From: an archaeon
Lineage (GTDB): Archaea > B1Sed10-29 > WALL01
Direction of reading: 5' to 3'
Length of the DNA: 64,000 nt
NCBI GenBank assembly: GCA_042584585.1
Contig: JBHOSQ010000006.1
Location: 266 to 64,265, forward strand
In this document: piece after piece, positions 3,894 to 22,657 of the stretch
Layout of the letters: each line of letters starts with the position of its first letter
How positions within the stretch are numbered: position 1 is the first letter of the stretch
The notes under the pieces: model-generated
The model's input: only the letters and a program-made list of their open reading frames with translations
Databases searched by the model: none
What the model was told of the DNA's origin: nothing
Made by a program: the position numbers and the translations under genes

Positions 3894-3979
3894 CGCCTGA
3901 AACTCAGGCGGCACGTCGGGACTGGACGTTGACTTGGGTCAACGTCGGGCCACGCGGGGCACAAGGCCCCGCAGAGGCA
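3894..3979 (+). repeat. H element copy A (long form with internal 22-bp palindrome)
   Basis: cgcctgaAACtcaggcg-GCACGT..-gacgttgacTTGGgtcaacgtc-..gcggggcACAAggccccgc-AGAGGCA. Confidence 0.8.
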
Positions 3980-4010
3980 TGAAAAGGCTTAAATCTATCC
4001 CCCCGGGACA

Positions 4011-4031
4011 GGAAAAGGCTTTTATCCCTCC
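4011..4031 (+). promoter_or_regulatory. consensus promoter motif without an adjacent ORF (orphan)
   Basis: ggaaaaggcttttatccctcc. The next credible ATG (4183) is about 160 nt away and has its own TATA-like ttactatatgg. Confidence 0.45.
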
Positions 4032-4182
4032 GCCGCAGTATCCATCGTGAAAAAGGACAGGCGCCACGACTTAAGGAAGCGAATGCTGGGGACCCGCCAT
4101 TGATTTTCTTGGGCGGGCGCACACGGCATTATCCTAAAATGTTACTATATGGATTTAAACCAGAAAATACAGAGAGTTATGT

Positions 4183-6366
4183 ATGAAACCTTGGTCAGTG
4201 TTTCTACTTGTTTTTTTGATGAGTGTTTTTGCTATTAGCCCGAGCACAATGGATTGGGCCGATTATGGTGAGCAAGAGGGAGAAACTTATTACGAGTGGC
4301 ATGTTGCTGATTCCCAGACCGATGAGAATCAGTGTGACCTTGACTTTAGCTCCCAGTCTGGAAATAGCGCGAGAAGCCCGGTCGCAGTCACCTCGGGCAA
4401 GCTGTACATAGACGGAGAGTTGATAGCAAGTGCGGACGGCTACTGGGATGATTTTCCCACCGAAAAACTCCAAAAGTTTTGTGGAGGTGTACACCGAATT
4501 GTCTTCAAGTCATCAGGTTACCAAGATTATGAGCGCGATGTCCTCATCCGCTGCTTCAGGGACGAGAGGTACAGCCGCAACGAACTTACTTTAATTAAGA
4601 ATGGGGTGAGCCAAGCCAAAAACAGTTTGAAGGAGGTGTACATAGACAAATGGGATTTGTCTCCGGTAGTGGGCTCAAAATTATTTGTGGATGAACGTTT
4701 TGTGGGCACTACCGGTTCGAGCGGAGAAATTACTTATTCGGTTTATTGCCCAGCAGCAAATAAGTTTATGATTAGTGGTACCCACTGGTCGAGTTCGATG
4801 GGTTCAGTATGCCCTAAAGCGAGTAAAGGGCTTTTTGAGAGCCAGTTCCCAAACAATTTCGCCAAGTCATCAGCAAAATCTCTTTCTGATTTCCCTGAAT
4901 GGGCTAAAAAAGATGTCACTTTGATTGCTATTGACGCCAACACTGGCAAACGGCTTTCTGATGTTGTTGTTGCCATTGACGGCAAGTTGGTTGGAGTTAC
5001 TGACCAATCCGGTGTTTTGGGTACAGGCCTCCCCGATTGCTCAAAAGGCGACATCACTGTAAAAGGGGTTAAGGAGGGGTATCTTGACAAAACACGAAAA
5101 GTGTTTAAGACCTTCGACTGTGCGGATTGTTACGGGCAAGAATATTGTTTGTATTCGCATCCATTATGGCAGTCAGAGGAAATTCCTGAAGAATTCGACC
5201 ATGAGCCACTAAGTTTTAGGCGTACCGTGCACTTGCTCCGTATGGCTCCGGCACTCCCATGCACAAGTGGTCTTGACTGCCCGAGCGAATTGCTCTGCGG
5301 TGAGGACGGGTTCTGCCATGAGCCCGAAGGAAATGTGGCAAAGCTTAACAAAACAGTTGAGCTTAACGAAACAGTTGAGCTTAACGAAACAATCGAAGAC
5401 AACTGCACAGCTCCTGAGTTTTGGTGCGAGCAGAAGCAGGAGTGCACCTCAAGCGAGCTCGCGTGCTATTGGGACTATAAACTGGAGAGCCCGTGCACAG
5501 CGGGATGGCCTGCGCACCAGGGCTCGACGAAGCACGTAAAGATTAATGTATTTGATTTTGGCTACCCCCCGAACCACGTCCACGGCTGTGACCTCTACGA
5601 AGTAAAGGATAGCGCCCTGCAGGGCATCGTGGACGAGGCACTGGACTGTTGCCTCAATGGATGTGGACCGCACTGTCAAAGCAGTTGTGCTGACAACAGG
5701 GCTAATTCTGCTGCCGATGAGTTCAAGGCGAATATAACCCTCAAGACTTGTGCCGGGTATTATTTGATAGATGGGCTGGGCCGGGAAAAACAGACAATGA
5801 GGGGCTACTACACTCCTGAAGTAAACTGTGCAAAGGGCACCACTGGCTATGGCACGAGTTGGGATTGCGGCAAAAGCCCCCAAAAATCATTCCCGAATGC
5901 GGTGGAGATGGTTTGTGAAAGGGAGCACAGGGGCGATGACGGCGAATTCACCAATCCACTGGGGTGGGCAGATAATACGGACATGTCCAAAAACAGCTGC
6001 GTGCTTTCCCCGCTGCCGGCGCATGCAAGCGTGTTTGATTTGAATACCGGCACGTGTTATGATTATTCCCTCGTGCTCACAACCCTTCTCAGAATGGCAG
6101 GTTATTCAGCTGATGAAGTTTATTCGGTCCACCAGGGCGACCACGTTTGGAATATAGTTAAATTCCCAGTTGACTACAAGTGGACTTTTGTGGACACCAC
6201 CGGGAATATACCAACCCCGTTCAAAAGGGGGGGTCTGCCGGGCGCTTCCTTCGATTACTGTGGCACTTATCCCTACGCAGAATGTGAGAATGACGGGGGG
6301 TACAGCCTAAGCTGTCCAGCAATAAATTCAGTTTGGGGTTGTGCAGACATTAGGGGGGTGGTTTAA
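4183..6366 (+). CDS. large secreted Cys-rich protein with C-terminal transglutaminase-like domain
   Basis: 727 aa with signal peptide MKPWSVFLLVFLMSVFA and many Cys. Has a tandem LNKTVE/LNETVE/LNETIE repeat. C-terminal GTCYDYSLVLTTLLRMAGY...GDHVWNIV...FVDTTG matches a Cys-His-Asp core. Confidence 0.7.
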   Translation: MKPWSVFLLVFLMSVFAISPSTMDWADYGEQEGETYYEWHVADSQTDENQCDLDFSSQSGNSARSPVAVTSGKLYIDGELIASADGYWDDFPTEKLQKFCGGVHRIVFKSSGYQDYERDVLIRCFRDERYSRNELTLIKNGVSQAKNSLKEVYIDKWDLSPVVGSKLFVDERFVGTTGSSGEITYSVYCPAANKFMISGTHWSSSMGSVCPKASKGLFESQFPNNFAKSSAKSLSDFPEWAKKDVTLIAIDANTGKRLSDVVVAIDGKLVGVTDQSGVLGTGLPDCSKGDITVKGVKEGYLDKTRKVFKTFDCADCYGQEYCLYSHPLWQSEEIPEEFDHEPLSFRRTVHLLRMAPALPCTSGLDCPSELLCGEDGFCHEPEGNVAKLNKTVELNETVELNETIEDNCTAPEFWCEQKQECTSSELACYWDYKLESPCTAGWPAHQGSTKHVKINVFDFGYPPNHVHGCDLYEVKDSALQGIVDEALDCCLNGCGPHCQSSCADNRANSAADEFKANITLKTCAGYYLIDGLGREKQTMRGYYTPEVNCAKGTTGYGTSWDCGKSPQKSFPNAVEMVCEREHRGDDGEFTNPLGWADNTDMSKNSCVLSPLPAHASVFDLNTGTCYDYSLVLTTLLRMAGYSADEVYSVHQGDHVWNIVKFPVDYKWTFVDTTGNIPTPFKRGGLPGASFDYCGTYPYAECENDGGYSLSCPAINSVWGCADIRGVV

Positions 6367-7059
6367 ATGAAAACCGCATTTTTGTTGATACTGTTTTTAG
6401 GGCTTTGTTCTGCCCAGTTGGTTGTTACACAGAGCGCACCTGCTACAGCTACAACTGGTGAAGCCATAACCGTGGACATAGTCGTTGAGAATGTCGGTAA
6501 TGAAATAGTTGATGTAGTTCTTGAGCAGATGGTAGGATACACCCCCCTCGAGCCCGAGCCGCAGGACCTGGGCATTGAAGGCTTTGTCACACCCCTCTAT
6601 TACCAGTGGGAATTCACACTCGCTCCTGGCGATAACTCAAAGGTTTTTTTCAGGGAGCGGCTGGACCATGCCTACAATTCTTATGTTGTTGGGTCTGCTG
6701 TTGCTTATGTTGGCGGCGAGACTTACGAGTCGAATTCCATTCGTATCGAAATAAGCTGCAACGCCAACGGAGTTTGCGAGTTTGAGGAAGGGGAACAGGC
6801 AATCAACTGCCCGCAGGATTGTGCAGGCGGTTCAGAGGATTTTTTATGCTTACCTGTTGAGGACGGGGTTTGCGATCCCGATTGTGCCAAAACAACGGAG
6901 GGCTGGGACCCTGACTGCACCGAAGAGGATTCGGGGGAGAATAGCACCTCTGGCGATAAAACCAACTACGTTTTGGTTGCGTTAGTTTTGGCTATAGGAC
7001 TAGGTGCCTTGTTAGCCGTTAAAAAGGGGATAATCCCTAACTTGCTGGAGCGGCGTTGA
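6367..7059 (+). CDS. cell-surface protein (signal peptide, Cys-rich stalk, C-terminal TM anchor)
   Basis: The start follows the stop of the upstream gene directly (taaATG). Signal MKTAFLLILFLGLCSA. Cys-rich segment CPQDCAGG...CDPDCAK...DPDC. C-terminal hydrophobic anchor NYVLVALVLAIGLGALLAV. Confidence 0.65.
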   Translation: MKTAFLLILFLGLCSAQLVVTQSAPATATTGEAITVDIVVENVGNEIVDVVLEQMVGYTPLEPEPQDLGIEGFVTPLYYQWEFTLAPGDNSKVFFRERLDHAYNSYVVGSAVAYVGGETYESNSIRIEISCNANGVCEFEEGEQAINCPQDCAGGSEDFLCLPVEDGVCDPDCAKTTEGWDPDCTEEDSGENSTSGDKTNYVLVALVLAIGLGALLAVKKGIIPNLLERR

Positions 7060-7094
7060 ATTGGCTGAACCGGGTCACGAGGGCAGAGCTTTAA

Positions 7095-7154
7095 ATGCCT
7101 ACCTGGAGCCACTCCCGCATTTCGACTTACGAGTCCTGCCCCCTGAAATTCTTC
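7095..7154 (+). pseudogene. orphan 5' fragment (20 codons) of the Cas4-like nuclease gene
   Basis: ATGCCTACCTGGAGCCACTCCCGCATTTCGACTTACGAGTCCTGCCCCCTGAAATTCTTC. It differs from 22658-22717 at 4 positions, all synonymous. Confidence 0.85.
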
Positions 7155-7163
7155 TTAACGGTG

Positions 7164-7985
7164 TCAAAACAGCGTACCGCGTTCCTCGGAGTATACTTGG
7201 CCGTTGTGATGTAGTTTTACGGTGATTGTTCCCATTGGAAAAACACCGGTGGGTTGTTTGTCGTATGGAGCCCTTACCCCGTATCCAAATAGAGTGCTAT
7301 ACTTTTCTGGGTTTAGTTGTATGCCTTTGGCGTCAATAACCGTGTCTGTTACCGTGTACGGGTTGGAGTTGGCGTCAAATTTAGTGGCTTCTGTTATAGC
7401 CAAAACATCTACTGTGCCATCCACCTCCATCATGTTGTCCTGCGCGTCATATGCCCTTAAGTCAAACTCAAGCCCGTCATCTTCCGAATCACTGTCCCAG
7501 TTCTTGCTTATTGGTGTTGATACAGAGATGTATTGCACAACCGGCGTGGGTTCGGGGGTTGGTTCTGCGGTTGGCTCCGGCGTTGGCGTGGGTTCGGGGG
7601 TTGGCTCAACCGTTGGTTCGGGGGTGGGCGTTGTGGTTGGAGTGCGTGTGTAGTTAGTGGAATAGATATTGTCGGAGAAGTATTGTGTGATGCCATTAGT
7701 GTCTGTCGCAGTCACCTTGATGTTGTGTACTCCTTCTGGGTACTGCTTGTCTTCGATAAGCTTTTCGCCTGGACTAAGGCTTGTTGTTTTTCCGTCGTCG
7801 AGGTCAACAACACAGCCCGTTGATTGTTCTGAATTCACGCAGTCCACTTCAATGTGCACGTTGAGGGGCGCGGGCCCGATTGTGTCATTGATGGCCAGTA
7901 TTGCTAGCTCAACTGTCGCGGGTGTGTCGTCAATACACCCCGCCAGTATGACAAGCGCCATGATCGCGAACAAAACCAACTTCAT
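7164..7985 (-). CDS. lipoprotein with PKD/Ig-like domain and Pro/Thr/Glu-rich linker
   Basis: Start taken at MKLVLFAIMALVILAGC (lipobox), about 25 nt after the minus-strand TATA in 8005-8025. Linker TPTTTPTPEPTVEPTPEPTPTPEPT. The track ORF extends to 8045. Confidence 0.65.
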   Translation of the reverse strand: MKLVLFAIMALVILAGCIDDTPATVELAILAINDTIGPAPLNVHIEVDCVNSEQSTGCVVDLDDGKTTSLSPGEKLIEDKQYPEGVHNIKVTATDTNGITQYFSDNIYSTNYTRTPTTTPTPEPTVEPTPEPTPTPEPTAEPTPEPTPVVQYISVSTPISKNWDSDSEDDGLEFDLRAYDAQDNMMEVDGTVDVLAITEATKFDANSNPYTVTDTVIDAKGIQLNPEKYSTLFGYGVRAPYDKQPTGVFPMGTITVKLHHNGQVYSEERGTLF

Positions 7986-8004
7986 GACGCTAGAAACGTG
8001 CTTT

Positions 8005-8025
8005 GGAAATAAAAACCCTTTTATC
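8005..8025. promoter_or_regulatory. near-palindromic bidirectional TATA motif
   Basis: ggaaataaaaacccttttatc. The minus-strand TATA serves gene 7164..7985. The plus-strand TATA abuts H hairpin 1. Confidence 0.55.
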
Positions 8026-8080
8026 AGCTTAAACTCAGCTGGCACGTTAGGCTTAGGGGCCTTCAGGCCCCTAGAGACAG
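8025..8080 (+). repeat. H element copy C
   Basis: cagcttaAACtcagctg-GCACGTTAGGCTT-aggggccTTCAggcccct-AGAGACAG. Its 3' end overlaps the last codons of minus-strand gene 8071..8514. Confidence 0.8.
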
Positions 8081-8514
8081 ACGCATTCCAACTGATTCTT
8101 TATCTCGTTACAAGCCAGCGAGAAATGTGTTTTGTCTTGTGTTAGGCACAAGTCTCTGCAGGAAGCTTCGACGGTGTCTTTTGTTTCTTGGGTGCCGTAC
8201 TCGTAGTAAGAACAGTACTTCGGGAGGTCATGCCACGCTGGCGGTGGCGGAGTGGGGGTTGGTGTTGGTTCTGGCGTTGGAATTGGCGTGGCTATAGGAA
8301 CTATAGTAACCACTGGGATGGGTGGAAGAGGCGTAGGAATTGGCTGTGGAGTTGGTGTAGCAAGAAACTGGTTTACGGTTCCAATTATTTGGCTTCCGTA
8401 CATTGGCCACACTATAAATGCAGACCCAGCCACCAAAAACAGCAAGAGGATTAAGATTAACCAGTTTTGCACTTTTACTAGAACATCCTCGTATATTGGC
8501 TTTGGGTTAGACAT
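8071..8514 (-). CDS. membrane-anchored protein with PT-rich linker and Cys-rich C-terminus
   Basis: 147 aa with an N-terminal TM (WLILILLLFLVAGSAFIVW) and linker PTPQPIPTPLPP...PTPEPTPTPTPPP. The C-terminus has 6 Cys. A minus-strand promoter aaagcttttatcagg lies upstream. Confidence 0.6.
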   Translation of the reverse strand: MSNPKPIYEDVLVKVQNWLILILLLFLVAGSAFIVWPMYGSQIIGTVNQFLATPTPQPIPTPLPPIPVVTIVPIATPIPTPEPTPTPTPPPPAWHDLPKYCSYYEYGTQETKDTVEASCRDLCLTQDKTHFSLACNEIKNQLECVCL

Positions 8515-8570
8515 ACAACTCTATTAGATTCTCCATTCCCTGATAAAAGCTTTACCTAACACCCACACAG

Positions 8571-8655
8571 CAGCTGAAACTCAGCCCAGACGAGAATCCG
8601 TTGGGATTCACGTCATGGCACGTTGTCCGTGACCCATACGGAGCCAGCGGACTAA
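8571..8655 (+). repeat. H element copy D (GTCCG...CGGAC subtype, with ~30-nt insertion after hairpin 1)
   Basis: cagctgaaactcagc + insert (gaatccGTTGggattc) + GGCACGTTGTCCGTgacccatacggagccAGCGGACTAA. Confidence 0.65.
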
Positions 8656-8680
8656 TCCATCCATTCGGCTTGCCTGGGGC

Positions 8681-8857
8681 TTACTCACTTGGGTAAACGC
8701 TTACTTCTTTCCTAGGGGTGTGCATAACGTTTGTTGACCCACATTCGCTGCACTTCAGACCCACCCGTTTTTTTGACTTGAACATGTTCCCACATTCCCT
8801 GCAGGTGTGTACGTCTTCGTCCATAATGTCCATACGGTTATTGGGGGCAAGAAGCAT
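8681..8857 (-). CDS. small zinc-ribbon protein
   Basis: CRECG...CSECG (CxxC-x15-CxxC). Start trimmed to MLLAPNN to avoid overlap with the upstream gene that ends at 8878. An alternative start is at 8833. Confidence 0.5.
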   Translation of the reverse strand: MLLAPNNRMDIMDEDVHTCRECGNMFKSKKRVGLKCSECGSTNVMHTPRKEVSVYPSE

Positions 8858-8877
8858 AAAATGGTTTATGTGTGAGG

Positions 8878-9696: not shown

Positions 9697-9772
9697 TCCT
9701 TCACTTGTTTTCGACGAATGCTACTTATGCACTCCAAAACACTTAAATCTACTGCCTACATTACTGCCATCA

Positions 9773-9802
9773 ATGCCTACTTGGTCCCACTCCCGCATCA
9801 CA
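9773..9802 (+). pseudogene. orphan promoter plus 5' fragment (10 codons) of the nuclease gene
   Basis: TATA cttaaatc is followed 25 nt later by ATGCCTACTTGGTCCCACTCCCGCATCACA, which is joined directly to H hairpin 1. Confidence 0.8.
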
Positions 9803-9803
9803 A

Positions 9804-9922
9804 CAGCTGAAACTCAGCTGGCACGTTAGACTTGGGCTTGGCCCTGGACGTCGGTCCCCTTGACGTTGACTTGGGTCAACGTCCAGACACGCAACGTCAA
9901 CCTCCGGGGCCCCGCAGAGGCA
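9804..9922 (+). repeat. H element copy E (long form)
   Basis: cagctgaAACtcagctg-GCACGTTAGACTTGGG...gacgttgacTTGGgtcaacgtc...ggggcCCcgc-AGAGGCA. Confidence 0.8.
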
Positions 9923-9961
9923 TGAAAAGGCTTAAATCTATCCCCCGCATTACCCTTACCA

Positions 9962-10045
9962 ATGCCCCCCTGGTCCCACTCCAGAATCAGTACCTACGAG
10001 TCCTGTCCTCTCAAATTCTTTTATAGTTACGTCGAGAAGCCGGAA
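9962..10045 (+). pseudogene. orphan promoter plus 5' fragment (28 codons) of the nuclease gene
   Basis: Encodes MPPWSHSRISTYESCPLKFFYSYVEKPE*. The nucleotide sequence is strongly diverged (AGC>TCC, CGC>AGA, TCG>AGT, TCT>AGT) yet only 2 amino-acid changes result. Confidence 0.85.
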
Positions 10046-10054
10046 TAATCCAAT

Positions 10055-10975
10055 TCATTTCTTTTTCCCGTGTTTTGAAGTGTATTCATCGAGTTCTTTG
10101 AGGGACACGTGCCATTTCCTGCCTATTTTGGTGGCGCCGAGGAGGCCTCGCCGCGAGAGGAGGCTTAGGTATTCCTGGCTGTACGGCGAGTGCTTGGCTG
10201 CCTCGGAGAGTGGGACGAGCCCCGTTTTTTTCCCTGGCTTTTGGAGTGCTTCGAGGTATATGTTCAGGGACTGCTCTACTGCGCGGGCAATGAAGTTCAC
10301 GAGGGGGGCGGGGTTGCCCTTGTCTGCTTCTTTTAGTGCGCGGTAGTACTTTTTTCTGTCGACGAGCCTTAGCACTGTTGGGGGGTAGCCTTCCCTGAAC
10401 AGCATTAGGTTCATCAAGAGCCTTGCGGTCCTGCCGTTGCCGTCGAAGAACGGGTGTATCCACACGAGCTTGTGGTGGGCGAGGGCGGCTTTTTCGATTG
10501 GGTCTTGTTTTGTCGCCTGCATCCACTTGACGAGTTCTCGCATGAGCCGCAGGAGCTTCTGTGGCGCCGGCGGGGTGAACGATGCCCCCGTAATCCTGAT
10601 TCTTTTGTCCCTGTACCTGCCCGCGTATTCGCTGGTCCCTTTCATGAGGATTTCGTGGGTCTCGAGAATGGTTTCTTCAGTGATTTTTTTGGTGCCTTTG
10701 GCTATTGACTCTGTCCACTCCAGCGCTTTTTCGTGGTTTTGTGCCTCGAGGTATTCGTTGAGTGGCTTGCCGCCGACGGTTATTCCTTCTTCCAGAATAA
10801 GCCGGGTTTCCTGGAGCGTGAGCGTGTTTCCTTCAATCGCGTTGGAGTTATAGGTAAGCTCGATGTTCATTTGGTGCCTCAAGCGCTCCACCGCGTCTCG
10901 CGGGAGGGGCCGGAGGCTGTCCAGCAAGGCCTTCTTTGCCTTGATTCTTTCGCGCAGACGCTCATTCAACAACAT
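10055..10975 (-). CDS. fic: Fic/DOC family protein (AMPylase-type Fido domain) with C-terminal HTH-like tail
   Basis: Canonical Fic motif HPFFDGNGRTARLLMN (HxFx[D/E]GNGRxxR). The N-terminal helical region is typical of Fic proteins. TATA-like gttaataaaacg lies about 20 nt upstream. Confidence 0.9.
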   Translation of the reverse strand: MLLNERLRERIKAKKALLDSLRPLPRDAVERLRHQMNIELTYNSNAIEGNTLTLQETRLILEEGITVGGKPLNEYLEAQNHEKALEWTESIAKGTKKITEETILETHEILMKGTSEYAGRYRDKRIRITGASFTPPAPQKLLRLMRELVKWMQATKQDPIEKAALAHHKLVWIHPFFDGNGRTARLLMNLMLFREGYPPTVLRLVDRKKYYRALKEADKGNPAPLVNFIARAVEQSLNIYLEALQKPGKKTGLVPLSEAAKHSPYSQEYLSLLSRRGLLGATKIGRKWHVSLKELDEYTSKHGKKK

Positions 10976-11071
10976 TATCGGATACCTCGTTTTATTAACT
11001 ACCCGATATTATGCAGTATCGGGTATTTAAGCTTTTCGCTTTCCCGATATACGGACAAGAAACCGTTTTAT

Positions 11072-11160
11072 CGCCTGAAACTCAGGCGGCACGTTAGGCT
11101 TGGGCTTGGCCCTGGACGTTGACCCAAGTCAACGTCAACCTCCGGGGTGCCCATAGGCAG
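11072..11160 (+). repeat. H element copy F1 (long form, palindrome loop inverted)
   Basis: cgcctgaAACtcaggcg-GCACGTTAGGCTTGGG..gacgttgacCCAAgtcaacgtc..ATAGGCAG. Confidence 0.8.
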
Positions 11161-11199
11161 GGAAAAACCTTTTATCCCTCCAACGCATTACCCTTAGCG

Positions 11200-11241
11200 A
11201 TGCCTACTTGGTCCCACTCAAGAATCAGCACGTACGATTCC
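11200..11241 (+). pseudogene. orphan promoter plus 5' fragment (14 codons) of the nuclease gene
   Basis: Encodes MPTWSHSRISTYDS, again with Ser/Arg codon-family switches, then H hairpin 1. Confidence 0.8.
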
Positions 11242-11296
11242 AGCTTAAACTAAGTTGGCACGTTTGGCTTGGGAACCTAACGGTTCCCAGAGGCAG
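11241..11296 (+). repeat. H element copy F2
   Basis: cagcttaAACtaagttg-GCACGTTTGGCTT-gggaaccTAACggttccc-AGAGGCAG. Confidence 0.8.
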
Positions 11297-11301
11297 AACA
11301 C

Positions 11302-11475
11302 TTATTTTTGTTGTATTCGGCCCACGAAGTTGACGAAGAACATGACTGCGGATATAAAGAAGATTGTTCCTCCGGTCGTATCGCCTTTGATGAAATAGTT
11401 TATGCTGGGCAACAGGAACGCTATGGTGGAAACCAGCCAGGGGTAAGGCCCGTCAAACCAGGTTTGTTTTTTCAT
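11302..11475 (-). CDS. small two-TM membrane protein (57 aa)
   Basis: My own translation: MKKQTWFDGPYPWLVSTIAFLLPSINYFIKGDTTGGTIFFISAVMFFVNFVGRIQQK. The ATG is about 25 nt after the minus-strand TATA of the palindromic motif 11496-11516. It is below the track's size cutoff. Confidence 0.4.
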   Translation of the reverse strand: MKKQTWFDGPYPWLVSTIAFLLPSINYFIKGDTTGGTIFFISAVMFFVNFVGRIQQK

Positions 11476-13870: not shown

Positions 13871-13927
13871 ATGTCCACTTGGAGCCACTCCCGCTTGTCG
13901 TGCTATGAACACTGCCCCCTCAACTTC
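13871..13927 (+). pseudogene. diverged 5' fragment (19 codons) of a nuclease-gene homolog
   Basis: Encodes MSTWSHSRLSCYEHCPLNF followed by H hairpin 1. An in-frame stop falls in the hairpin (..SLN*). Confidence 0.7.
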
Positions 13928-13984
13928 AGCTTAAACTAAGCTGGCACGTTAGGCTTGGGCTGCATAAGGCAGCCCAGAGGCAGG
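13927..13984 (+). repeat. H element copy G
   Basis: cagcttaAACtaagctg-GCACGTTAGGCTT-gggctgcATAAggcagccc-AGAGGCAGG. Confidence 0.8.
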
Positions 13985-16006: not shown

Positions 16007-16015
16007 AAGCGCTTT

Positions 16016-16543: not shown

Positions 16544-16582
16544 AATACATCACACTCACTCTTAGCATAAAAACCCTTTTAT

Positions 16583-16639
16583 CGCCTTAAACTAAGGCGG
16601 CACGTTAGACTTGCGGGGCGCAAGGCCCCGCAGAGGCAG
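16583..16639 (+). repeat. H element copy (16.6 kb)
   Basis: cgccttaAACtaaggcg-GCACGTTAGACTT-gcggggcGCAAggccccgc-AGAGGCAG. Confidence 0.8.
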
Positions 16640-16678
16640 CAAGAACCTTTTTATCCGTTGCCTGTGTTATTCCTAGTA

Positions 16679-17947
16679 ATGCAGAAAGAAATAGCCCAGA
16701 GACAGCAGAAGGCATTGGCTTACTGGGTCGCATTGTTGTTCAGGCATAATGACGGCCTGGAAGTCGGTGAAGTCAGTGAAATGCTGAATAAGCACTTCAA
16801 GGCGCTGCACTTCGATGCTCGTAGCTTAAAGCAATTCTTGAATGATCCGCCGCGTTACGTCCAAAAAGTGAGTGGCGAAGAAGCCGAGGCTGAGTACAAC
16901 AAGGCCCTCGCCCGCTTCACCCCAAGCCGATTCATTGGCAAGGGAGAAATCAAAAAAGGGAGGGCGTGGGCACCCCGGTCCGGGGACCCTCTTGAAAGAG
17001 TGCACATGCTGGGAGTGGCTTACAAGGTTTCTTTGTTGCTCAGGGACAAGCAGGGGCTAGGGCCTGGGCGGATTGCCGAGGTATTGGCCGAGCATTTTGG
17101 GGAGGGAAACTTCAGCGTACACAGCGTGAGCCGTAGCTTCAAGAACCCCCCGGGGTACGCTGACCGCATCACTGACGCTGAAGCCCGTGGAGAATATGCC
17201 AAGGTCGTGGAGAAGACTGGCATCGGAAAAAAGAAGGGGATAATGAAGCTGCACCAGTCGAGTGACAGTATAATGGCGTACCAGCTTTATCACCACTTGA
17301 TTGATAAGTTTGGCTGGGGGTCCACACGCACCCAGACCATTCTGAAGAAGTACACGGGCCTTGAGTTTAAGAGGATTCATTCCAGTGTGAAGCAGGACGT
17401 GCTGCACCCCAAGAAAGACGTTGCGAGTGCGGCCACTGCGTTGCGCGAGAAAATGTCTCTTGACCTTGGGAACTCGATTGTGGTGTTTGAGCTGGTCAAG
17501 CGCTTGAAACAGGATTTTGGGTGTGGCAACGATGACGCATACGACGTTTTGCAGGAGTACAGCGGTAACAATCTGAAGCCGGAACGGAGGACCGTTAAGG
17601 AGTGGCGTGGGGAGCGGAAGCCGCCGGGGTACAAAAAGGGCGTGTTGGTTAAGGCGGTTATTGACAGGCACTTGGACAAGATTTTTTCTGGGACTTCGCT
17701 GAAGAAAAAGTTGTTGGGGTACCACGTGTACAAGCTCGCGCGTGACCGGATTGGCACGGGAGGGGGCTTGAACTACGAAGAGATGCTGAACGAGCACTTT
17801 GGCTCGCCCATTTTTGTGGGGGTACGTTTCGCGCGCTGGGCGGGCAAGCCGAGGCCTCGTGGCTACAAGCAAAGAATTCCCGATGTCACAATCGAAAGGG
17901 AGTACAACCGCTTCCTCAAGACTCACAAAGACAAGCTCAAGAAGTAA
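16679..17947 (+). CDS. protein of about five tandem ~80-100 aa helical (HTH-like?) repeats
   Basis: Internal repeats end in NDPPRYVQK.., KNPPGYADR.., RKPPGYKKG.. and PRPRGYKQR... Each is preceded by a similar helical module (E.L.EHFG...). The ATG lies about 35 nt after the TATA. Confidence 0.6.
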   Translation: MQKEIAQRQQKALAYWVALLFRHNDGLEVGEVSEMLNKHFKALHFDARSLKQFLNDPPRYVQKVSGEEAEAEYNKALARFTPSRFIGKGEIKKGRAWAPRSGDPLERVHMLGVAYKVSLLLRDKQGLGPGRIAEVLAEHFGEGNFSVHSVSRSFKNPPGYADRITDAEARGEYAKVVEKTGIGKKKGIMKLHQSSDSIMAYQLYHHLIDKFGWGSTRTQTILKKYTGLEFKRIHSSVKQDVLHPKKDVASAATALREKMSLDLGNSIVVFELVKRLKQDFGCGNDDAYDVLQEYSGNNLKPERRTVKEWRGERKPPGYKKGVLVKAVIDRHLDKIFSGTSLKKKLLGYHVYKLARDRIGTGGGLNYEEMLNEHFGSPIFVGVRFARWAGKPRPRGYKQRIPDVTIEREYNRFLKTHKDKLKK

Positions 17948-17981
17948 ACCCTTTTATCCATCCCCCGCATTACCCTTACCA

Positions 17982-18032
17982 ATGCCTACCTGGAGCCACT
18001 CCCGCATTTCAACGTACGAGTCCTGCCCCCTC
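17982..18032 (+). pseudogene. orphan promoter plus 5' fragment (17 codons) of the nuclease gene
   Basis: aaacccttttatccatcccccgcattacccttaccaATGCCTACCTGGAGCCACTCCCGCATTTCAACGTACGAGTCCTGCCCCCTC. It abuts the stop of minus-strand gene 18034..18693. Confidence 0.85.
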
Positions 18033-18033
18033 G

Positions 18034-18693
18034 TTATCTTGCGGGCTTGAACCCAATGACACACGGGCTGGTTGTGTTTATGGGGCAGTAAGCCCATATC
18101 TTTCCATCTGTATCATTGGTTACTTCTAGTTCTTGGGGCGTGCATTGGAACGAGTCTTGTGGGAAGTAGTATCCCTCGCACTTGCCGTCCACGTCGTTCA
18201 CTCCCGCGCAGCAGAACTGCACGTAACCTGGCTTAAGCCCAACTATATGGGCCGCTACGTCTGCGGTGTACTCCTCGGCTTCACTGAAGAGAACCACTTG
18301 GGGAGACAACGAACCCAATCCCCCTTCACCCACGTGGTTTAGTTCTTGCTTTATTACGTTGATTGGGTCTTGGTCATAAAAAGAGGAGGATGATGGGAAT
18401 ATGGCAGCGAATACAACTGTTGAGAGAAGCATGGTGATCACTATGATTGACAAGCGTTTGATGTGGGCATCCATGGGCTTGTGGAGAACTCTTTCCGCTA
18501 TTTTAAGTGCGACGAGCAGGACTATTGCGATAGCGATGTATGCCGCGTCTAGCATTAAGGCCGCTTCCATGTCCAGCCAAACACTTGTACTAAGGCCTCC
18601 GCTTATGAAGAATGCCACGAACACCCCCACGACTACAAGGGCTAGTTTGTTAATGATTGCGTTGATGCCTTCCCAGTCCATACCCCCAAACAC
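18034..18693 (-). CDS. membrane protein with C-terminal Cys-rich domain (paralog family with 20148 and 20552)
   Basis: Three N-terminal TM helices. The C-terminus FCCAGVNDVDGKCEGYYFPQDSFQCTPQELEV...AYCP...CVIGFK is shared with the two lipoproteins at 20148-20965. Confidence 0.6.
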   Translation of the reverse strand: MFGGMDWEGINAIINKLALVVVGVFVAFFISGGLSTSVWLDMEAALMLDAAYIAIAIVLLVALKIAERVLHKPMDAHIKRLSIIVITMLLSTVVFAAIFPSSSSFYDQDPINVIKQELNHVGEGGLGSLSPQVVLFSEAEEYTADVAAHIVGLKPGYVQFCCAGVNDVDGKCEGYYFPQDSFQCTPQELEVTNDTDGKIWAYCPINTTSPCVIGFKPAR

Positions 18694-18735
18694 TCGCCCA
18701 AAACACTTAAATCTACCGCCTGCTTATTGCCAGTG

Positions 18736-18792
18736 ATGCCCACTTGGAGCCACTCCTGCATATCCACGTACGAGTCCTGTCCCCTCAACTTC
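18736..18792 (+). pseudogene. orphan promoter plus 5' fragment (19 codons) of the nuclease gene
   Basis: Encodes MPTWSHSCISTYESCPLNF and is then joined to H hairpin 1. Confidence 0.8.
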
Positions 18793-18848
18793 AGCTTAAA
18801 CTAAGCTGGCACGTTAGGCTTGGGAGCCTAAAGGCTCCCAGAGGCAGG
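18792..18848 (+). repeat. H element copy J
   Basis: cagcttaAACtaagctg-GCACGTTAGGCTT-gggagccTAAAggctccc-AGAGGCAGG. Confidence 0.8.
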
Positions 18849-18857
18849 GAAAAGGCT

Positions 18858-19214
18858 TTAGGGCGCAACGTATTTTGTTTGTATTCCTGTTGGTTGGCCG
18901 GGATTTTGTTGGGTATGGAACACGATTAGTTGTATTCCTTGGTCTATTGCGTCTTGAGTAATCAGGGAGAGCTCTTCTTGTGTTGCGCTCTTTTTGTTGT
19001 GGAGTATTCTCAACAAGCCGTTTTCTTGGAGCTGACCGACCGGCCAATTGTTTTTCTTGATGAGTGGCCAGAGTTCCTGCGTCCCGCCGAAGTCACTGAT
19101 GAATAGTGTTTTGGTGCCGGCCTTGCTTGCGGTGACTGCTTGGCCAAACGCGTCTTCTAGTGTTGACGAGGGCGCGGCTGCCGGCTTTGGCTTCAGGAAG
19201 TCAAGGAGTCCCAT
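18858..19214 (-). CDS. hypothetical protein
   Basis: Track ORF of 118 aa. No domain recognised. Confidence 0.55.
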   Translation of the reverse strand: MGLLDFLKPKPAAAPSSTLEDAFGQAVTASKAGTKTLFISDFGGTQELWPLIKKNNWPVGQLQENGLLRILHNKKSATQEELSLITQDAIDQGIQLIVFHTQQNPGQPTGIQTKYVAP

Positions 19215-19240
19215 GGTTTTTGGCTAAGCGCTTGTGGTAT

Positions 19241-19750
19241 TTAAGCGAGGTATGCCCAGGCCACTGCGATTAGCATTGTTACGTCCATTACGCGAATGAA
19301 TTTGTTCATTGCCGGGCGGTATTCGTGGATTGCTTCTACGTTGAGGCCTATCATGTCGACTATCCACCTGGCGGAGGCCGCGATGAGGAAGAGTTGTCCC
19401 ATTCCGGGGAGCGAGGTGAGTGCGAGGCCGCCGGGGGGCTGGCCGGGGAAGGGCAACATCATTGCGGCGACCCAGGCGTCGAAGTAGTACAGCATCGCGA
19501 GGCCCATTCGCATGAAGCCCCATTTTTTGGCGATTACGTTGCCCAACAATGAGTTGACTATGAACAGGAACAATGCGAGTATGGCTATGTGTTCGACGTA
19601 TCCCGTGAAGTATTCCGCGAGGATGGACACGCCCCAGAACAGGAATATGGCGAGGGCCAGGAACGTGATTTGCTTGTCGCCGTAGGCCTTTCTCCACAGT
19701 GCCCCATGCACATCAGGAGGGAGTATGCGGTAGCCTTTCTTCTTGGCCAT
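19241..19750 (-). CDS. polytopic membrane protein
   Basis: 169 aa with 4-5 hydrophobic helices. The overlapping R-rich ORF 19224..19697 is rejected. Confidence 0.6.
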   Translation of the reverse strand: MAKKKGYRILPPDVHGALWRKAYGDKQITFLALAIFLFWGVSILAEYFTGYVEHIAILALFLFIVNSLLGNVIAKKWGFMRMGLAMLYYFDAWVAAMMLPFPGQPPGGLALTSLPGMGQLFLIAASARWIVDMIGLNVEAIHEYRPAMNKFIRVMDVTMLIAVAWAYLA

Positions 19751-19791
19751 GCCTCGAAAAACGCTTCCAAAACACTTAAATCTATCCCCCG

Positions 19792-19847
19792 CAGCTTAAA
19801 CTAAGCTGGCACGTTGTCCGTGCCGGCTTGCGGGGCCAGCGGACTAA
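19792..19847 (+). repeat. H element copy K (GTCCG...CGGAC subtype)
   Basis: cagcttaAACtaagctg-GCACGTT-gtccgtgccggcttgcggggccagcggac-TAA. Confidence 0.75.
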
Positions 19848-19876
19848 GGTTTTTTATTCTCCGGGCGCTTTGAGAG

Positions 19877-20143
19877 TTGATAATGGTGCTCATTCCAGGG
19901 GACACAACACCAATAACTGTCTCAGCTGTATCGCTCTTGGGGTTGGTTTTGCCTTTCGTGGTTTTGATTTATGCTTACTTTCGTGTTTCCAAAGGAAAAA
20001 TAAATCTCCTCAAAAAGATGACGCCCATACAACTCGGGATACTGCTCCTTTTGATAGTGTGGTTTTGTGTCACCCTAATCTCAGTAATCACCCCGTTTTT
20101 CCGTATTGCGGTGATGGGTAGCCCCTTAGTGTTTACATGGTGA
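19877..20143 (+). CDS. small membrane protein
   Basis: 88 aa with 3 hydrophobic segments. The ATG is 29 nt after TATA ggttttttattc. Confidence 0.5.
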   Translation: MIMVLIPGDTTPITVSAVSLLGLVLPFVVLIYAYFRVSKGKINLLKKMTPIQLGILLLLIVWFCVTLISVITPFFRIAVMGSPLVFTW

Positions 20144-20147
20144 AGAA

Positions 20148-20555
20148 ATGAAACGAATCGCTTTGCTCGCAATCGTGACTCTTGTCGTGCTGGCGGGATG
20201 CTTAGAGACTACATGTTGTGCGTCGACAGCTGCCTACATGGGTAATGAAGTGCAGCAAGTAGACGTCAATCAAAAAAGTATCAGTTCCGTGATTATTGTA
20301 TTTGGTGAGGGTGACACATACACTACAGAACAAGTGGCGTTTGAAGCCAATCGTGAAGGAGAACAAGTGTTGTTTTGTTGTGTTGACTCGCCAGAAGAAA
20401 AATGCGCTGGTTACGAATTCCCGAGCAGTGAATTTGACTGCACCCCAGAAAAAGTCGTGGTAAAAACAGAAACACAAGGCAACATAATGGCCTACGCCGG
20501 CTCTCAAGAACAAGGAACACGCTACTTTTTGGTTGGCATTAAGGTGGTTTCATGA
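20148..20555 (+). CDS. lipoprotein with Cys-rich C-terminal domain
   Basis: MKRIALLAIVTLVVLAGC lipobox. C-terminus LFCCVDSPEEKCAGYEFPSSEFDCTPEKV. It overlaps the next gene by 4 nt (ATGA). Confidence 0.6.
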   Translation: MKRIALLAIVTLVVLAGCLETTCCASTAAYMGNEVQQVDVNQKSISSVIIVFGEGDTYTTEQVAFEANREGEQVLFCCVDSPEEKCAGYEFPSSEFDCTPEKVVVKTETQGNIMAYAGSQEQGTRYFLVGIKVVS

Positions 20556-20965
20556 TATCCAACGCCTTGCTTTTCATTGTTGTTCTGGCCATGCTGGTGG
20601 GTTGCTTGACCCCGCTTTCAACTAACCACAGCCCGATTGTCATGATGGGGCAGGGGCTTAATTTAATCAAGAAGGGTGGGGCAGTCACCATATCGGATTT
20701 GTCTGCCGAATTCATTGAAGGCGGGATTTATGCTGCGGACGCGGCTGCCAGTGAAGCGGTTGGATTGGCTAACGGCAGCGTGTCTTTTTGTTGCCAATTC
20801 ACTCAAGAAGAAAAATGCAGTGGGTTTGAGTTCCCAGAAGATACTTTCGACTGCCAGCCAAGCACGCTAACAGCAAAGAAAACAATACAAGGCAGGATTA
20901 TGGCCTATTGCCGAAAAACCAAGGAAGACTGCTTCATTGGATTCAAATCAGTGGAGGGCGTCTAA
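20552..20965 (+). CDS. lipoprotein with Cys-rich C-terminal domain
   Basis: MISNALLFIVVLAMLVGC lipobox. C-terminus SFCCQFTQEEKCSGFEFPEDTFDCQPSTL...AYC...CFIGFK. Confidence 0.6.
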   Translation: MISNALLFIVVLAMLVGCLTPLSTNHSPIVMMGQGLNLIKKGGAVTISDLSAEFIEGGIYAADAAASEAVGLANGSVSFCCQFTQEEKCSGFEFPEDTFDCQPSTLTAKKTIQGRIMAYCRKTKEDCFIGFKSVEGV

Positions 20966-20984
20966 TGCCTACCTGGTCCCACTC
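20965..20984 (+). pseudogene. shortest 5' fragment (20 nt) of the nuclease gene
   Basis: ATGCCTACCTGGTCCCACTC overlaps the TAA stop of gene 20552..20965 (TAATG) and is joined to H hairpin 1. Confidence 0.6.
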
Positions 20985-21038
20985 AGCTTAAACTAAGCTG
21001 GCACGTTGTCCGTGGCCCCTGCGGGGCCAGCGGACTAA
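20984..21038 (+). repeat. H element copy L (GTCCG...CGGAC subtype)
   Basis: cagcttaAACtaagctg-GCACGTT-gtccgt-ggccccTGCggggcc-agcggac-TAA. Confidence 0.75.
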
Positions 21039-21072
21039 ACACTTTTTATAGGTGGAAAGTGTTGTGGGGGAT

Positions 21073-21378
21073 ATGAACCTAAAGCAAGTCTTGAAGCCAC
21101 GAAAAGGCAGTTTAAAGGTCCTCCTCGTCTTGTTTGTAGTCTTAGTAATTCTGACAATGTACTCCTTTGTGGGACGGAGCTATTCGATACTGGCCCCCTT
21201 CCCCATGATAAGCCAGACTTGTGGTGTAATAGACCCCGTTTGTGCCGTTGAAATTAGCTGGCTTGGGATTATTGGCAGCCTGATAATTTGGATTCTGGTT
21301 TATGTCGCGTCATCCTACTTCTTTTACCAAAAAGAAAAAAAGACGCTGTCTATTGTGAAAAGCACATTCGAAAAATAA
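21073..21378 (+). CDS. small membrane protein
   Basis: ATG 21073 is 30 nt after TATA ctttttatagg. Two or three TM helices. Confidence 0.5.
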   Translation: MNLKQVLKPRKGSLKVLLVLFVVLVILTMYSFVGRSYSILAPFPMISQTCGVIDPVCAVEISWLGIIGSLIIWILVYVASSYFFYQKEKKTLSIVKSTFEK

Positions 21379-21401
21379 GTTGGCAGTGCATAGTCGTTGT
21401 A
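21378..21401 (+). repeat. distant copy of the 23S 3'-trailer processing-stem half
   Basis: agttggcagtgcatagtcgttgta is identical over 24 nt to 35165-35188 and near-identical to the functional stem half at 35329-35354. Confidence 0.8.
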
Positions 21402-21404
21402 AAT

Positions 21405-21460
21405 CAGCTGAAACTCAGCTGGCACGTTAGACTTGGGAGCCTAAAGGCTCCCAGAGGCAG
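21405..21460 (+). repeat. H element copy M
   Basis: cagctgaAACtcagctg-GCACGTTAGACTT-gggagccTAAAggctccc-AGAGGCAG. Confidence 0.8.
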
Positions 21461-21499
21461 CAAAAACCTTTTTATCCTTCCACTGCCTATTCTTTGTTA

Positions 21500-22615
21500 A
21501 TGCCGGGAAAAGAGCTGGAGGAGCGGGCGCCTTTCGACAGGGACAAGTTCTTGTTGAAGATGGGCAAGAAGTCTGCTAGGGACGTCAAGAAATTGATGAG
21601 CGCCAAGCCTCCGGAACTCAAGTCATTGGACCCCGAGTTGAAGAAGCTTGTTGAGGAGCGGATGAAGACCCCTCTCAGCGCGTTTGACCTTAAGTACCGG
21701 TTGTTTGGGGTAGGGAACTACGGCAAGAAGTACAAAAAAGAACAAGTCGGTAGGTACAAGCTTGAGTCCCAAGCAATGTTTATCGCGGGCCAGTTGCACC
21801 TCAAGGACGAGCCGCTTGACGCGCTGTACAGTTATTTTTGGCCTGTTGCCCAGGCGCACTTGAGTATGCCTGAGTACAAGATGCCGGGGGGCATTGGCCG
21901 CAGGAGCCTTAGGGTGGCCAAGCTTATTTCGAAGGCATGGGTTCATTCGCACGCGTTTGATTACGCCAATCTTGAGTTGAAGGACTTCAAGCCGTTTTAT
22001 GGTGGCCACGAGACGCGGACCGTATGGTCTGCGTTGGGCGTGGACATTTTGGGGCGGGCTGGTGACGTGGAAGACATTCCTGCGCTTGACCAGATTTCCG
22101 AGAAGTGTTGGGAGGGCTCGATGGAAGGTGATTGTGGTGCGGCTCGCCGCAAGATTATTTCGAGGGCTGCGCTGAAGGCCACGCTGGACCGTGAGCAGTT
22201 GGAAAAGGTGGGGTTGAAGACGAAGTTGAGTGACGTGCACTTGATTGACAAGCTTGTTCCGTTGATGAACGTTAGTGGGTTGTCGTATGTTTTGCAGGCG
22301 TTTCCGGGGATGAAGGGCATGGCTCGGCTGTCAACGAATCCTGTGGAGGCTTCGTTGGAGGCAAAGGAAATCAAGAAGATTGTTCAGAAGGGTGTGGGCC
22401 GGGAGTTTGAGTTCAAGCCAGGAATGTTTGCTGAGGGCGAGGAGTACGCGTACTACGGGTCCGCACAGTCGTTTGCCGAGGAACACGGCCTGATAAAAGA
22501 CACCGGCAGAAAAGAATACCGCTCCAGCAGAAAGTTCTTCAAGTTCACGCCCAAAGGCAAAAAATTCATCAAGGCCTTGTTCAAAGGGCTGAAAGACATA
22601 CAAATCAAGTTCTAG
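21500..22615 (+). CDS. hypothetical protein
   Basis: 371 aa with a consensus promoter upstream. I recognise no recombinase or nuclease motif. It lies directly upstream of the nuclease gene. Confidence 0.6.
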   Translation: MPGKELEERAPFDRDKFLLKMGKKSARDVKKLMSAKPPELKSLDPELKKLVEERMKTPLSAFDLKYRLFGVGNYGKKYKKEQVGRYKLESQAMFIAGQLHLKDEPLDALYSYFWPVAQAHLSMPEYKMPGGIGRRSLRVAKLISKAWVHSHAFDYANLELKDFKPFYGGHETRTVWSALGVDILGRAGDVEDIPALDQISEKCWEGSMEGDCGAARRKIISRAALKATLDREQLEKVGLKTKLSDVHLIDKLVPLMNVSGLSYVLQAFPGMKGMARLSTNPVEASLEAKEIKKIVQKGVGREFEFKPGMFAEGEEYAYYGSAQSFAEEHGLIKDTGRKEYRSSRKFFKFTPKGKKFIKALFKGLKDIQIKF

Positions 22616-22623
22616 TGCCCCGC

Positions 22624-22640
22624 AACCCTTTTATCCCTCC
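22624..22640 (+). promoter_or_regulatory. BRE/TATA promoter of the intact nuclease gene
   Basis: aacccttttatccctcc, with ATG 22658 29 nt after the TATA start. The same promoter-leader-ATG architecture is seen in the orphan fragments. Confidence 0.65.
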
Positions 22641-22657
22641 ACCGCGTAAAACCGTTG

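Follow-up and report, generated by a model that had tools for sequence, protein, structure and literature searches.

Islands that restore their target upon insertion, such as the Islander/TIGER-type islands, those found at the 5′ end of dusA and the Prochlorococcus tycheposons, bring a second copy of their target's end with them; the target is rebuilt, with the displaced fragment left at the other end of the island (PMC4383910, PMC9897764, PMC4482086, 10.1101/2020.12.28.424599). Integration leaves the target once in full and once in part (PMC9897764, PMC4383910), and repeated insertion produces tandem arrays that contain several incomplete target copies. The 3′ ends of tRNAs serve in this way, and dusA, whose 5′ end is restored (PMC4482086), is one known case involving the 5′ end of a protein gene. 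Here, we analysed a stretch of 64,000 nucleotides from an archaeal metagenome-assembled genome (MAG; contig JBHOSQ010000006.1, positions 266 to 64,265), referred to below as the window, in which copies of a two-hairpin repeat, called H, delimit small gene blocks upstream of a nuclease gene. We consider it probable that about 15 small cassettes, non-autonomous and arrayed in tandem, were inserted here at the 5′ end of the nuclease gene, which they restore, with H as their conserved end and probable recombination site. The anatomy of the array, described below, recurs across genomes.

Other systems share some of these features. The palindrome-associated transposable elements (PATEs) related to IS200/IS605, which are of the miniature inverted-repeat transposable element (MITE) type, and the repetitive extragenic palindromes (REPs) with their transposases (RAYTs) are hairpin-ended single-strand elements that insert at a fixed tetra- or pentanucleotide and produce no target duplication. 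The cis-mobilizable elements (CIMEs) are att-flanked elements without integrase, mobilized in trans, kb-sized and derived from integrative and conjugative elements (ICEs) with known integrases. H resembles IS200/IS605 derivatives and REPs in being small and non-autonomous, without terminal inverted repeats, with hairpins beside a short conserved single-stranded motif and one sharp end, and in being dispersed in intergenic DNA. It differs from them by the presence of target duplications and of a carried copy of the target (the target mimic), by the lack of a fixed flanking motif at the junctions, and in that no HUH gene (TnpA/RAYT) was found in the DNA examined. The H cassettes, like CIMEs, are non-autonomous, att-flanked and accreted beside their target, whereas CIMEs are far from them in size and origin and lack a hairpin element. 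In contrast to target-restoring islands, no integrase was found in or near the elements, among the matches listed beside about 35 H loci; units measure 0.06–3.2 kb and not tens of kb; and a single two-hairpin end is common to elements with unrelated targets, many of them cargo-less and MITE-sized. With integrons and clusters of attC sites lacking an integrase (CALINs), the array shares small, mostly orphan accessory genes split by a structured site, empty cassettes, signs of exchange within the site and, as in CALINs, the lack of an adjacent integrase (PMC9668308). However, H is not an attC site, cassettes have their own promoters and lie in either orientation, target stumps and duplications are present, and several conserved genes are used instead of one attI. 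The array looks like an apparently recombinase-less kind of target-restoring insertion element, and not like a true integron. No description of the H element was found in the literature searched.

H was searched with the pattern CTKAAACTMAGSYGGCACGTT, a degenerate 21-mer that spans the first hairpin (hairpin 1) plus the sequence GGCACGTT. Allowing at most two mismatches, it gave 13 matches in the window compared to none in 100 shuffles. A covariance model, run over the window with filters off, retrieved 12 full copies and one split copy, all on the + strand within 3894–21466, and two minus-strand copies near 47–48 kb (Table 1); there were no others. This corresponds to 13 copies in 17.6 kb versus 2 in the other 46.4 kb, a 17-fold local enrichment.

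A typical H is about 56 nt long. Hairpin 1 has a 7-bp stem and the loop AAC; over 35 copies from three sources, its pairs are formed in 99.6% of cells, with compensatory double changes at three of the seven pairs (AU/GC, GC/CG and GC/UA switches). It is followed by the invariant GGCACGTT and by hairpin 2, whose sequence is very different between copies and which nevertheless keeps 7–9 perfect Watson-Crick pairs in most of them (fewer in GTCCGT-type and degenerate copies). The two ends of H are unlike each other and form no terminal inverted repeats. These sequences make it evident that base pairing in H is constrained, the strand and the nucleic-acid form of the fold being putative only. Since wobble pairs are nearly absent and the orientation of H to nearby transcription is not consistent (antisense where it lies downstream of tRNA or rRNA genes, sense upstream of the nuclease gene), the structure would fit a DNA-level fold, single-stranded or cruciform, better than an RNA. 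No Rfam 15 family matched between 3800 and 22700, either at E ≤ 1 or at the gathering threshold; over the whole window, Rfam returned rRNA and tRNA matches only. Long variants, up to 120 nt, contain an extra perfect 9-bp hairpin, GACGTTGAC-NNNN-GTCAACGTC (3920–3950, 9860–9890 and 11112–11135). Several short hairpin modules seem to make up H elements in mosaic fashion. In 9 of the 13 array copies, a box resembling a B recognition element followed by a TATA box (BRE/TATA) was read within a few nt after H. Such AAAGGCTTTTATCC-type boxes recur in the array, and we take them, from their consensus, to be archaeal promoters and not part of the mobile repeat as such.

The array ends at an intact gene encoding a PD-(D/E)XK protein (PF12705), Cas4/RecB-like and with a Cas4-like Cys motif. 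Because its homologs are widespread in archaea (988 at E ≤ 0.001, in DPANN, Thermoplasmata and Methanoperedens), this gene, of the single-copy type, appears to be a chromosomal target and not a gene of the element. BLASTN and TBLASTN identified eight fragments of its 5′ region, 19–86 nt long, in the array (Table 1). Five of these stumps directly abut an H copy without spacer, and three (7095, 9962 and 17982) are not followed by H. The H side of the junctions is constant, starting at the C that closes hairpin 1 at its base (C-AGCT/GCCT), while the gene side stops at −14, +19/20, +31, +41 and, twice, +56/57 relative to the start codon. Four H copies (3894, 8025, 11072 and 16583) begin directly after a TATA-like box ending in TTTTAT, the next base being the C of H, and another (21405) adjoins a sequence copied from the 23S rRNA 3′ flank. 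A preliminary description of this DNA, made from its letters, had proposed an array of cassette blocks ending at the nuclease gene, with genes on both strands and with a fixed repeat side and a variable gene side at each junction. All the boundaries it listed proved real, junctions agreed within 1 nt, and we count about 15 blocks with 0–4 genes each on both strands. The elements evidently have one fixed end, the 5′ boundary of H, and another end made of a target copy of variable extent.

The stumps were compared codon by codon with the live gene. The eight stumps contain 37 synonymous versus 14 non-synonymous codon differences, including multi-step Ser and Arg codon switches (AGC/TCC, CGC/AGA), and the stump at 13871 carries residues (RLSC) typical of a 50%-identical homolog, as would a distant-lineage allele. 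Since a decaying local duplicate would gain mostly non-synonymous changes, this bias indicates that the stumps diverged inside working genes of other lineages and were imported with the cassettes as target mimics, not generated by local duplication. In three window stumps, and in one of a related genome, the start codon and the stop of the cargo gene before it overlap (TAATG, TAAATG), and other stumps carry the full nuclease promoter; the cassette adjoining the nuclease gene would thus provide this gene with its signals for expression and its initial codons.

The nuclease protein is identical to that of an NCBI MAG labelled 'archaeon' and 81% identical to that of Candidatus Iainarchaeum/Diapherotrites MAGs, which makes the host an Iainarchaeum-like DPANN archaeon. 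The window also holds, on the minus strand, an archaeal rRNA operon (16S, tRNA-Ala, 23S; 35.4–40.8 kb). In an Iainarchaeum relative, the exact H pattern has about 21 matches on 10 contigs; two were found in another DPANN MAG and others on 10 contigs from metagenomes, of which one is probably matched by chance, whereas viral contigs had none and BLASTN against phage and plasmid collections gave nothing. About 35 copies were gathered from the relative and the metagenomes. H is a sparse genome-wide family of Iainarchaeum-like DPANN genomes, with roughly one copy per 25–30 kb in the relative against one per 1.35 kb in the array. An even spread of H over the genome, or a loss of the junction regularity in further copies, would have contradicted the preliminary description; H is sparse in the relative and enriched in the array, and the regularity holds in more than 40 further copies. 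Invariance of the blocks among relatives was not found either, as no cargo is shared between the window and the relative.

The relative's nuclease gene is flanked by stumps on both sides. Of the two 5′ stumps upstream of it, one meets hairpin 1 at the +57 position seen in the window (CTCAACTTC joined to AGCTGAAAC), and this junction has been inherited along with H in three diverged copies from two genomes. Four 3′ stumps of 22–106 nt lie downstream, interleaved with cargo and all without H (12693–12741, 13303–13351, 14123–14144 and 15735–15840 of contig L001). Insertion hot spots thus exist at both ends of the gene, perhaps with a second type of element taking part. The relative also contains an array of at least five units in which a 23S-flank stump is joined to H, a promoter and 1 to 1.5 kb of cargo (L006). 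Its counterpart in the window is the single junction at 21371–21460, the intact flank being located at 35323–35356, beside the 23S gene. The flank copies at 21371–21404, 35159–35192 and 35323–35356 are direct repeats, and those at 21371 and 35159 bracket 13.8 kb that hold H copy 12, the nuclease gene and a defence island; this bracket could be a very large H-type insertion at the rRNA flank or result from a cassette moved between arrays.

Solo H copies, most of which are flanked by a target duplication, gave the same picture. In 18 cases, the sequence to the left of H (0–5 nt from its boundary) recurs 57–291 nt downstream, the exception being one weak 11-nt match further upstream. These target repeats are 12–41 nt long and several are perfect (39/39 and 21/21, for example); at the nuclease gene, duplications reach about 100 nt. 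At least 12 solo copies lie 60–250 nt from the 3′ end of a tRNA gene on the opposite strand, and the duplicated piece is the last 17–25 nt of the tRNA, up to the T-loop. Mismatches cluster in the 3–6 nt adjoining H (TTCGAAC to TCCTAAC, TCCAAAC or TTATAAC), as in hybrid att sites. Target sites of the family comprise tRNA 3′ ends, the 23S rRNA 3′ flank, the nuclease 5′ end and other protein gene ends, and many members are only 57–290 nt long and carry no cargo. At one locus (L011), a stretch of nuclease codons, about +55 to +84, comes after H, which hints at very short duplications. The recurrence of these duplications points to a general architecture, target fragment/H-(0 to several kb)-target, of which the nuclease and rRNA arrays would be cargo-bearing, repeated versions. 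As the same architecture is found at tRNA 3′ ends and at the rRNA flank, the stumps seem better explained as displaced fragments of target-restoring insertions than as parts of an integron; the insertions evidently restore their target and accumulate in tandem.

Some smaller observations concern these solo copies. The extra-hairpin module GACGTTGAC-NNNN-GTCAACGTC is also present inside a solo element of the relative (L012). A 48-nt sequence occurs twice with 96% identity on the + strand of the window (48158–48205 and 49219–49266) and again at 46860–46885; on this strand it has a C-box-like (TGATGA) and a D-box-like (CTGA) motif. Its complement (ATTGGCTCAGCAGCTACTC...) is the target beside both minus-strand H copies and beside one H of the relative (L009). 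The sequence is possibly a small RNA gene; no Rfam family matched at gathering scores. The tRNA at 3100–3215 of L038, adjoining H and a stump cluster, appears intron-bearing, and at two other H-adjacent tRNA-like targets (L027, L030) ARAGORN detected no tRNA gene.

In the reading we favour, a full cassette would consist of H, usually an outward archaeal promoter, 0–4 cargo genes and the target mimic, that is, the nuclease promoter and/or its first 19–86 nt. A circular or template form, H-cargo-mimic, would recombine with the chromosome inside the mimic, which would place the cassette before the gene and rebuild the complete gene (U-mimic/H-cargo-mimic-gene). The old 5′ end would stay upstream as a stump abutting the H of the incoming cassette, and repeated rounds would lead to stump/H-cargo-stump/H-cargo...-intact gene. 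H would be the recognition and crossover site, probably as a single-stranded DNA fold, for an enzyme encoded elsewhere. Elements down to 57 nt, with an 18–23 nt duplication in addition, could not form circles of double-stranded DNA; this and the covariation in the hairpins favour a small intermediate, either single-stranded or of the copy-choice type, and recognition of the folded hairpin by the enzyme, a classical integrase being less likely.

Cassettes might also move between arrays by H-by-H exchange. The 3′ half of H falls into four recognisable types, and 17 of the 24 possible combinations of hairpin-1 variant and 3′-half type exist, which requires recombination between the halves, most simply at GGCACGTT. 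In addition, the nuclease array contains a cassette with an rRNA-flank mimic (20984–21404), as would be expected if a circle composed of H, the open reading frame (ORF) and the rRNA mimic had entered it by H-by-H recombination. The two findings are suggestive of exchange within H. More tentatively, and with some doubt on our part, H might be the site of a new archaeal cassette system, in which an unlinked and possibly unrecognised enzyme cuts the foot of the hairpin and frees small circles or copy-choice templates (H-cargo-target mimic), which integrate through base-pairing of the mimic with conserved genes and are shuffled H-by-H at GGCACGTT. Such a system would be a functional analogue of the integron, without IntI or attC, and would assemble arrays of accessory genes in the reduced genomes of DPANN archaea. 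Little is known of how these host-dependent archaea, whose genomes are tiny, obtain their accessory genes for surface and defence functions. The array offers a concrete, sequence-defined vehicle, hairpin-marked cassettes that would stack at conserved genes, rebuild them and carry promoters, and its cargo is mostly made of secreted, lipoprotein and membrane proteins, the class expected in host contact. The covariance model of H provides a searchable marker for flexible regions and, through phylogenetic co-occurrence, for the enzyme. If the latter is not a classical integrase, this would be a new mechanism of site-directed DNA insertion via target mimicry.

A different account, which we regard as unlikely, is that H is a generic intergenic repeat, REP-like or resembling a bacterial interspersed mosaic element, a terminator or an RNA-stability element, which lies at cassette borders by coincidence, and that the stumps arose through Campbell-type homologous recombination of circles carrying a nuclease piece. 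H is indeed spread over at least 10 contigs of the relative amid housekeeping genes and is accompanied by further short repeat modules, stumps are also arrayed without H (at three window sites and, in the relative, at the nuclease gene's 3′ end), and direct repeats of 50–110 nt could support homologous recombination. However, the duplicated left flank of solo copies ties H to the insertion event, most stumps abut H, one junction was kept with H in diverged copies, and a terminator or RNA element agrees poorly with the inconsistent orientation and the lack of an Rfam family; duplications of 12–25 nt are moreover too short for RadA-type recombination. It seems more unlikely still that the array derives from decayed classical tyrosine-integrase islands, with H as the P′ arm of attP only and the small elements as deletion remnants. 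Here, the complete and partial target copies at the ends are a textbook signature (PMC9897764, PMC4383910), and the mismatches beside H look like those of hybrid att sites. Crossover in the T-loop region of tRNA genes is typical of integrases. This would nevertheless require more than 15 independent remnants, each having lost everything but an intact H, without any integrase fragment among the matches listed beside about 35 H loci. It would also require the same H at unrelated targets (tRNA T-loops, 23S flank, nuclease 5′ end, protein 3′ ends), and covariation of the stems is unexpected for a double-stranded arm site.

The preliminary description had called the architecture integron-like. The array with a fixed repeat end, variable target and accessory cargo stands, while membership of the integron family does not, as IntI is missing and the attC motif test failed. 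That H is attC of a genuine chromosomal integron or CALIN, with IntI encoded elsewhere, is in our view highly improbable, in spite of a cassette array with a repeated structured site, of CALINs and integrons known in Archaea (PMC9668308) and of a shuffling of H halves resembling attC-by-attC exchange. Seven H copies contain GTTAGGC or GTTAGAC, which fit the R′ consensus GTTRRRY of attC, but the complementary RYYYAAC is absent within 150 nt upstream in every copy, and GTCCGT-type copies have no GTTRRRY. H consists of two independent hairpins with perfect stems, compared to the single long imperfect R″-L″/L′-R′ stem with extrahelical bases of attC. Cassettes with promoters of their own and genes on both strands do not fit either, and integron recombination makes neither target-gene fragments nor target duplications; IntI was not found in the 57 window ORFs, although a CALIN would not need it. 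Finally, direct repeats adjoining a live gene could recall a local tandem duplication of the nuclease 5′ region, or an ordinary transposon target-site duplication, followed by decay, an explanation that is hardly credible here. The synonymous bias and the distant-lineage alleles largely refute the former; for the latter, lengths from 12 to about 100 nt contrast with the fixed length made by a transposase, and H has no terminal inverted repeats. Other candidates were rejected as well. A self-cleaving ribozyme has no Rfam match, and the fold is unlike those of the hepatitis delta virus or hatchet ribozymes. A retroelement with variable target duplications is contradicted by the synonymous-biased divergence of the stumps, and no reverse transcriptase was seen. 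For an Xer/dif-like site, the palindromes are wrongly spaced, and a MITE would have inverted ends, which are lacking, and duplications of fixed length, while those found here vary (12–41 nt for solo copies and, at the nuclease gene, up to about 100 nt).

Several points weigh against the target-restoring cassettes that we favour. The window sequence comes from one contig of one MAG, and a single related species served for comparison, an Iainarchaeum population represented by three near-identical assemblies (L001–L003), in which no strain polymorphism can be read. Recombinase, integrase and transposase families had no match in the 57 window ORFs (Pfam, and for unidentified ORFs PHROGs and NCBIfam), in agreement with the preliminary description, which saw no integrase or transposase in the 64 kb; for 89 further H-flanking ORFs elsewhere, the matches listed (top 25 families per scan) were of housekeeping type, with no recombinase among them. 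One conserved H for very different targets appears unlike the arm site of a classical integrase, and elements of 57–130 nt seem too small for a double-stranded circular intermediate. Stump formation does not look strictly H-dependent, because three window stumps and all 3′ stumps of the relative are without H, and the promoter-only 'stumps' may simply be the consensus promoter of the genome.

The search for an enzyme was continued around H in the relative, where no recombinase was found in 10 nearby ORFs; a recurrent ORF pair there encodes AAA_14+DUF4143 ATPases, not integrases. The preliminary description had pointed to the nuclease and to the ORF 21500–22615 as candidates. The nuclease, which we take for the target of the insertions, was rejected, since the solo H copies are unrelated to it and no observation points to it as the enzyme. 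The ORF is an orphan at the 90% cluster level with about 30 remote relatives. Its AlphaFold2 model is all-alpha (pLDDT, the predicted local distance difference test score, of 88), and it had no PDB fold match and no Pfam match, only a weak C-terminal winged-helix similarity. Because a homolog on another contig has an intron-bearing tRNA, two 3′ stumps of tRNAs and a copy of H as neighbours, it seems to travel with H elements; nothing appears to mark it as a recombinase. It belongs to a rare family and is best treated as cargo.

Table 1. Features of the array and of its surroundings, in window coordinates
Feature	Position	Strand	Remarks
H copy 1, long variant	3894..3979	+	Left edge of the array; extra 9-bp hairpin GACGTTGAC-TTGG-GTCAACGTC; left side is a TATA-like box directly after gene 3143-3883
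Two promoter-only remnants	3980..4040	+	BRE/TATA-like; 3965-4003 100% identical to 9908-9946
Cargo	4183..7059	+	727-aa Cys-rich secreted protein, weak transglutaminase-like match; 230-aa secreted/transmembrane protein
Nuclease 5′ stump	7095..7153	+	+1 to +59; 95% identity to live gene; no H after
H copy 2	8025..8080	+	
H copy 3, split	8571..8655	+	8573-8660 in the covariance model; hairpin 1, inserted hairpin of ~30 nt, GGCACGTT, 3′ half
Promoter and nuclease 5′ stump	9735..9803	+	ATG 9773; to ~+31; abuts H copy 4
H copy 4, long variant	9804..9923	+	Empty cassette with the next stump
Promoter and nuclease 5′ stump	9924..10047	+	ATG 9962; to ~+86
Cargo	10055..10975	-	Fic/DOC protein, C-terminal helix-turn-helix
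H copy 5, long variant	11072..11159	+	
Promoter and nuclease 5′ stump	11160..11240	+	ATG 11200; to +41; empty cassette
H copy 6	11241..11296	+	
Nuclease 5′ stump	13871..13926	+	+1 to +56; start codon overlaps stop region of upstream cargo gene
H copy 7	13927..13982	+	
H copy 8	16583..16638	+	
Promoter and nuclease 5′ stump	17944..18032	+	ATG 17982; to +51; no H after
Promoter and nuclease 5′ stump	18697..18791	+	ATG 18736; to +56
H copy 9	18792..18847	+	
Promoter-only stump	19765..19791	+	Stops 14 nt short of the expected ATG position
H copy 10	19792..19847	+	3′ half of GTCCGT...GCGGAC type
Nuclease 5′ stump	20965..20983	+	+1 to +19/20; TAATG overlaps stop of cargo gene 20552-20965
H copy 11	20984..21039	+	
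Stump of another target	21371..21404	+	23S rRNA 3′-flank copy, 91% identity to 35159-35192; abuts H copy 12
H copy 12	21405..21460	+	Last before the nuclease gene; promoter after
Last cargo gene	21500..22615	+	371-aa all-alpha protein, C-terminal winged-helix-like part
Promoter and intact nuclease gene	22619..23806	+	Putative target; ATG 22658
Eco57I/MmeI-like type IIG restriction-modification gene	23796-26678	-	
HARE-HTH protein	26776-27927		
HNH-like protein	28598-29716		Weak match
GHKL/HATPase protein	29901-32042		713 aa
Partner ORF	32044-33252		
Dcm methylase	34011-35072		
Two more 23S 3′-flank copies	35159..35356	+	35159-35192 and 35323-35356; second adjoins the 23S gene; apparent second kind of target
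Solo H	46882..46943	-	12-nt target duplication (TGGCTCAGCAGC / TGGCTCAGAAGC)
Solo H	48202..48263	-	Adjoins short repeated sequence ATTGGCTCAGCAGCTACTC...

The cargo comprises 25 ORFs, 11 of them on the minus strand. Of these, 16 have a signal or a membrane-spanning segment at the N-terminus, or multiple transmembrane segments, and 5 have a lipobox-like L[AGV]GC; one protein has 34 Cys and one gene is a Fic gene (PF02661). The bias to secreted, lipobox, Cys-rich or membrane proteins plus Fic noted earlier is therefore real. Three paralogous small lipoprotein or membrane proteins are located in separate cassettes (18034–18681, minus strand; 20148–20555 and 20552–20965, + strand). A 53%-identical homolog of these adjoins an H copy in an unrelated DPANN (Nanobdellati) MAG (L014, 1052–1585), and the C-terminal part of the Fic gene has a 62% match in the same MAG (L026); these matches suggest that cassette cargo moves between lineages. 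Pro/Thr-rich low-complexity linkers in cargo lipoproteins (7164–7985 and 14020–14469, both on the minus strand; L001 7000–7300) give spurious cross-matches between cassettes and genomes. The protein encoded at 16658–17947 (429 aa) is made up of four repeat units, about 100 aa in length, that end with a PP(R/G)Y-like motif; it had no family match in Pfam, PHROGs and NCBIfam.

Directly after the nuclease gene, a defence-type island extends from 23796 to 35072 (Table 1), with a GC content of 40–43% versus about 51%. In the relative, an MmeI-like restriction-modification gene is likewise located downstream of the nuclease gene.

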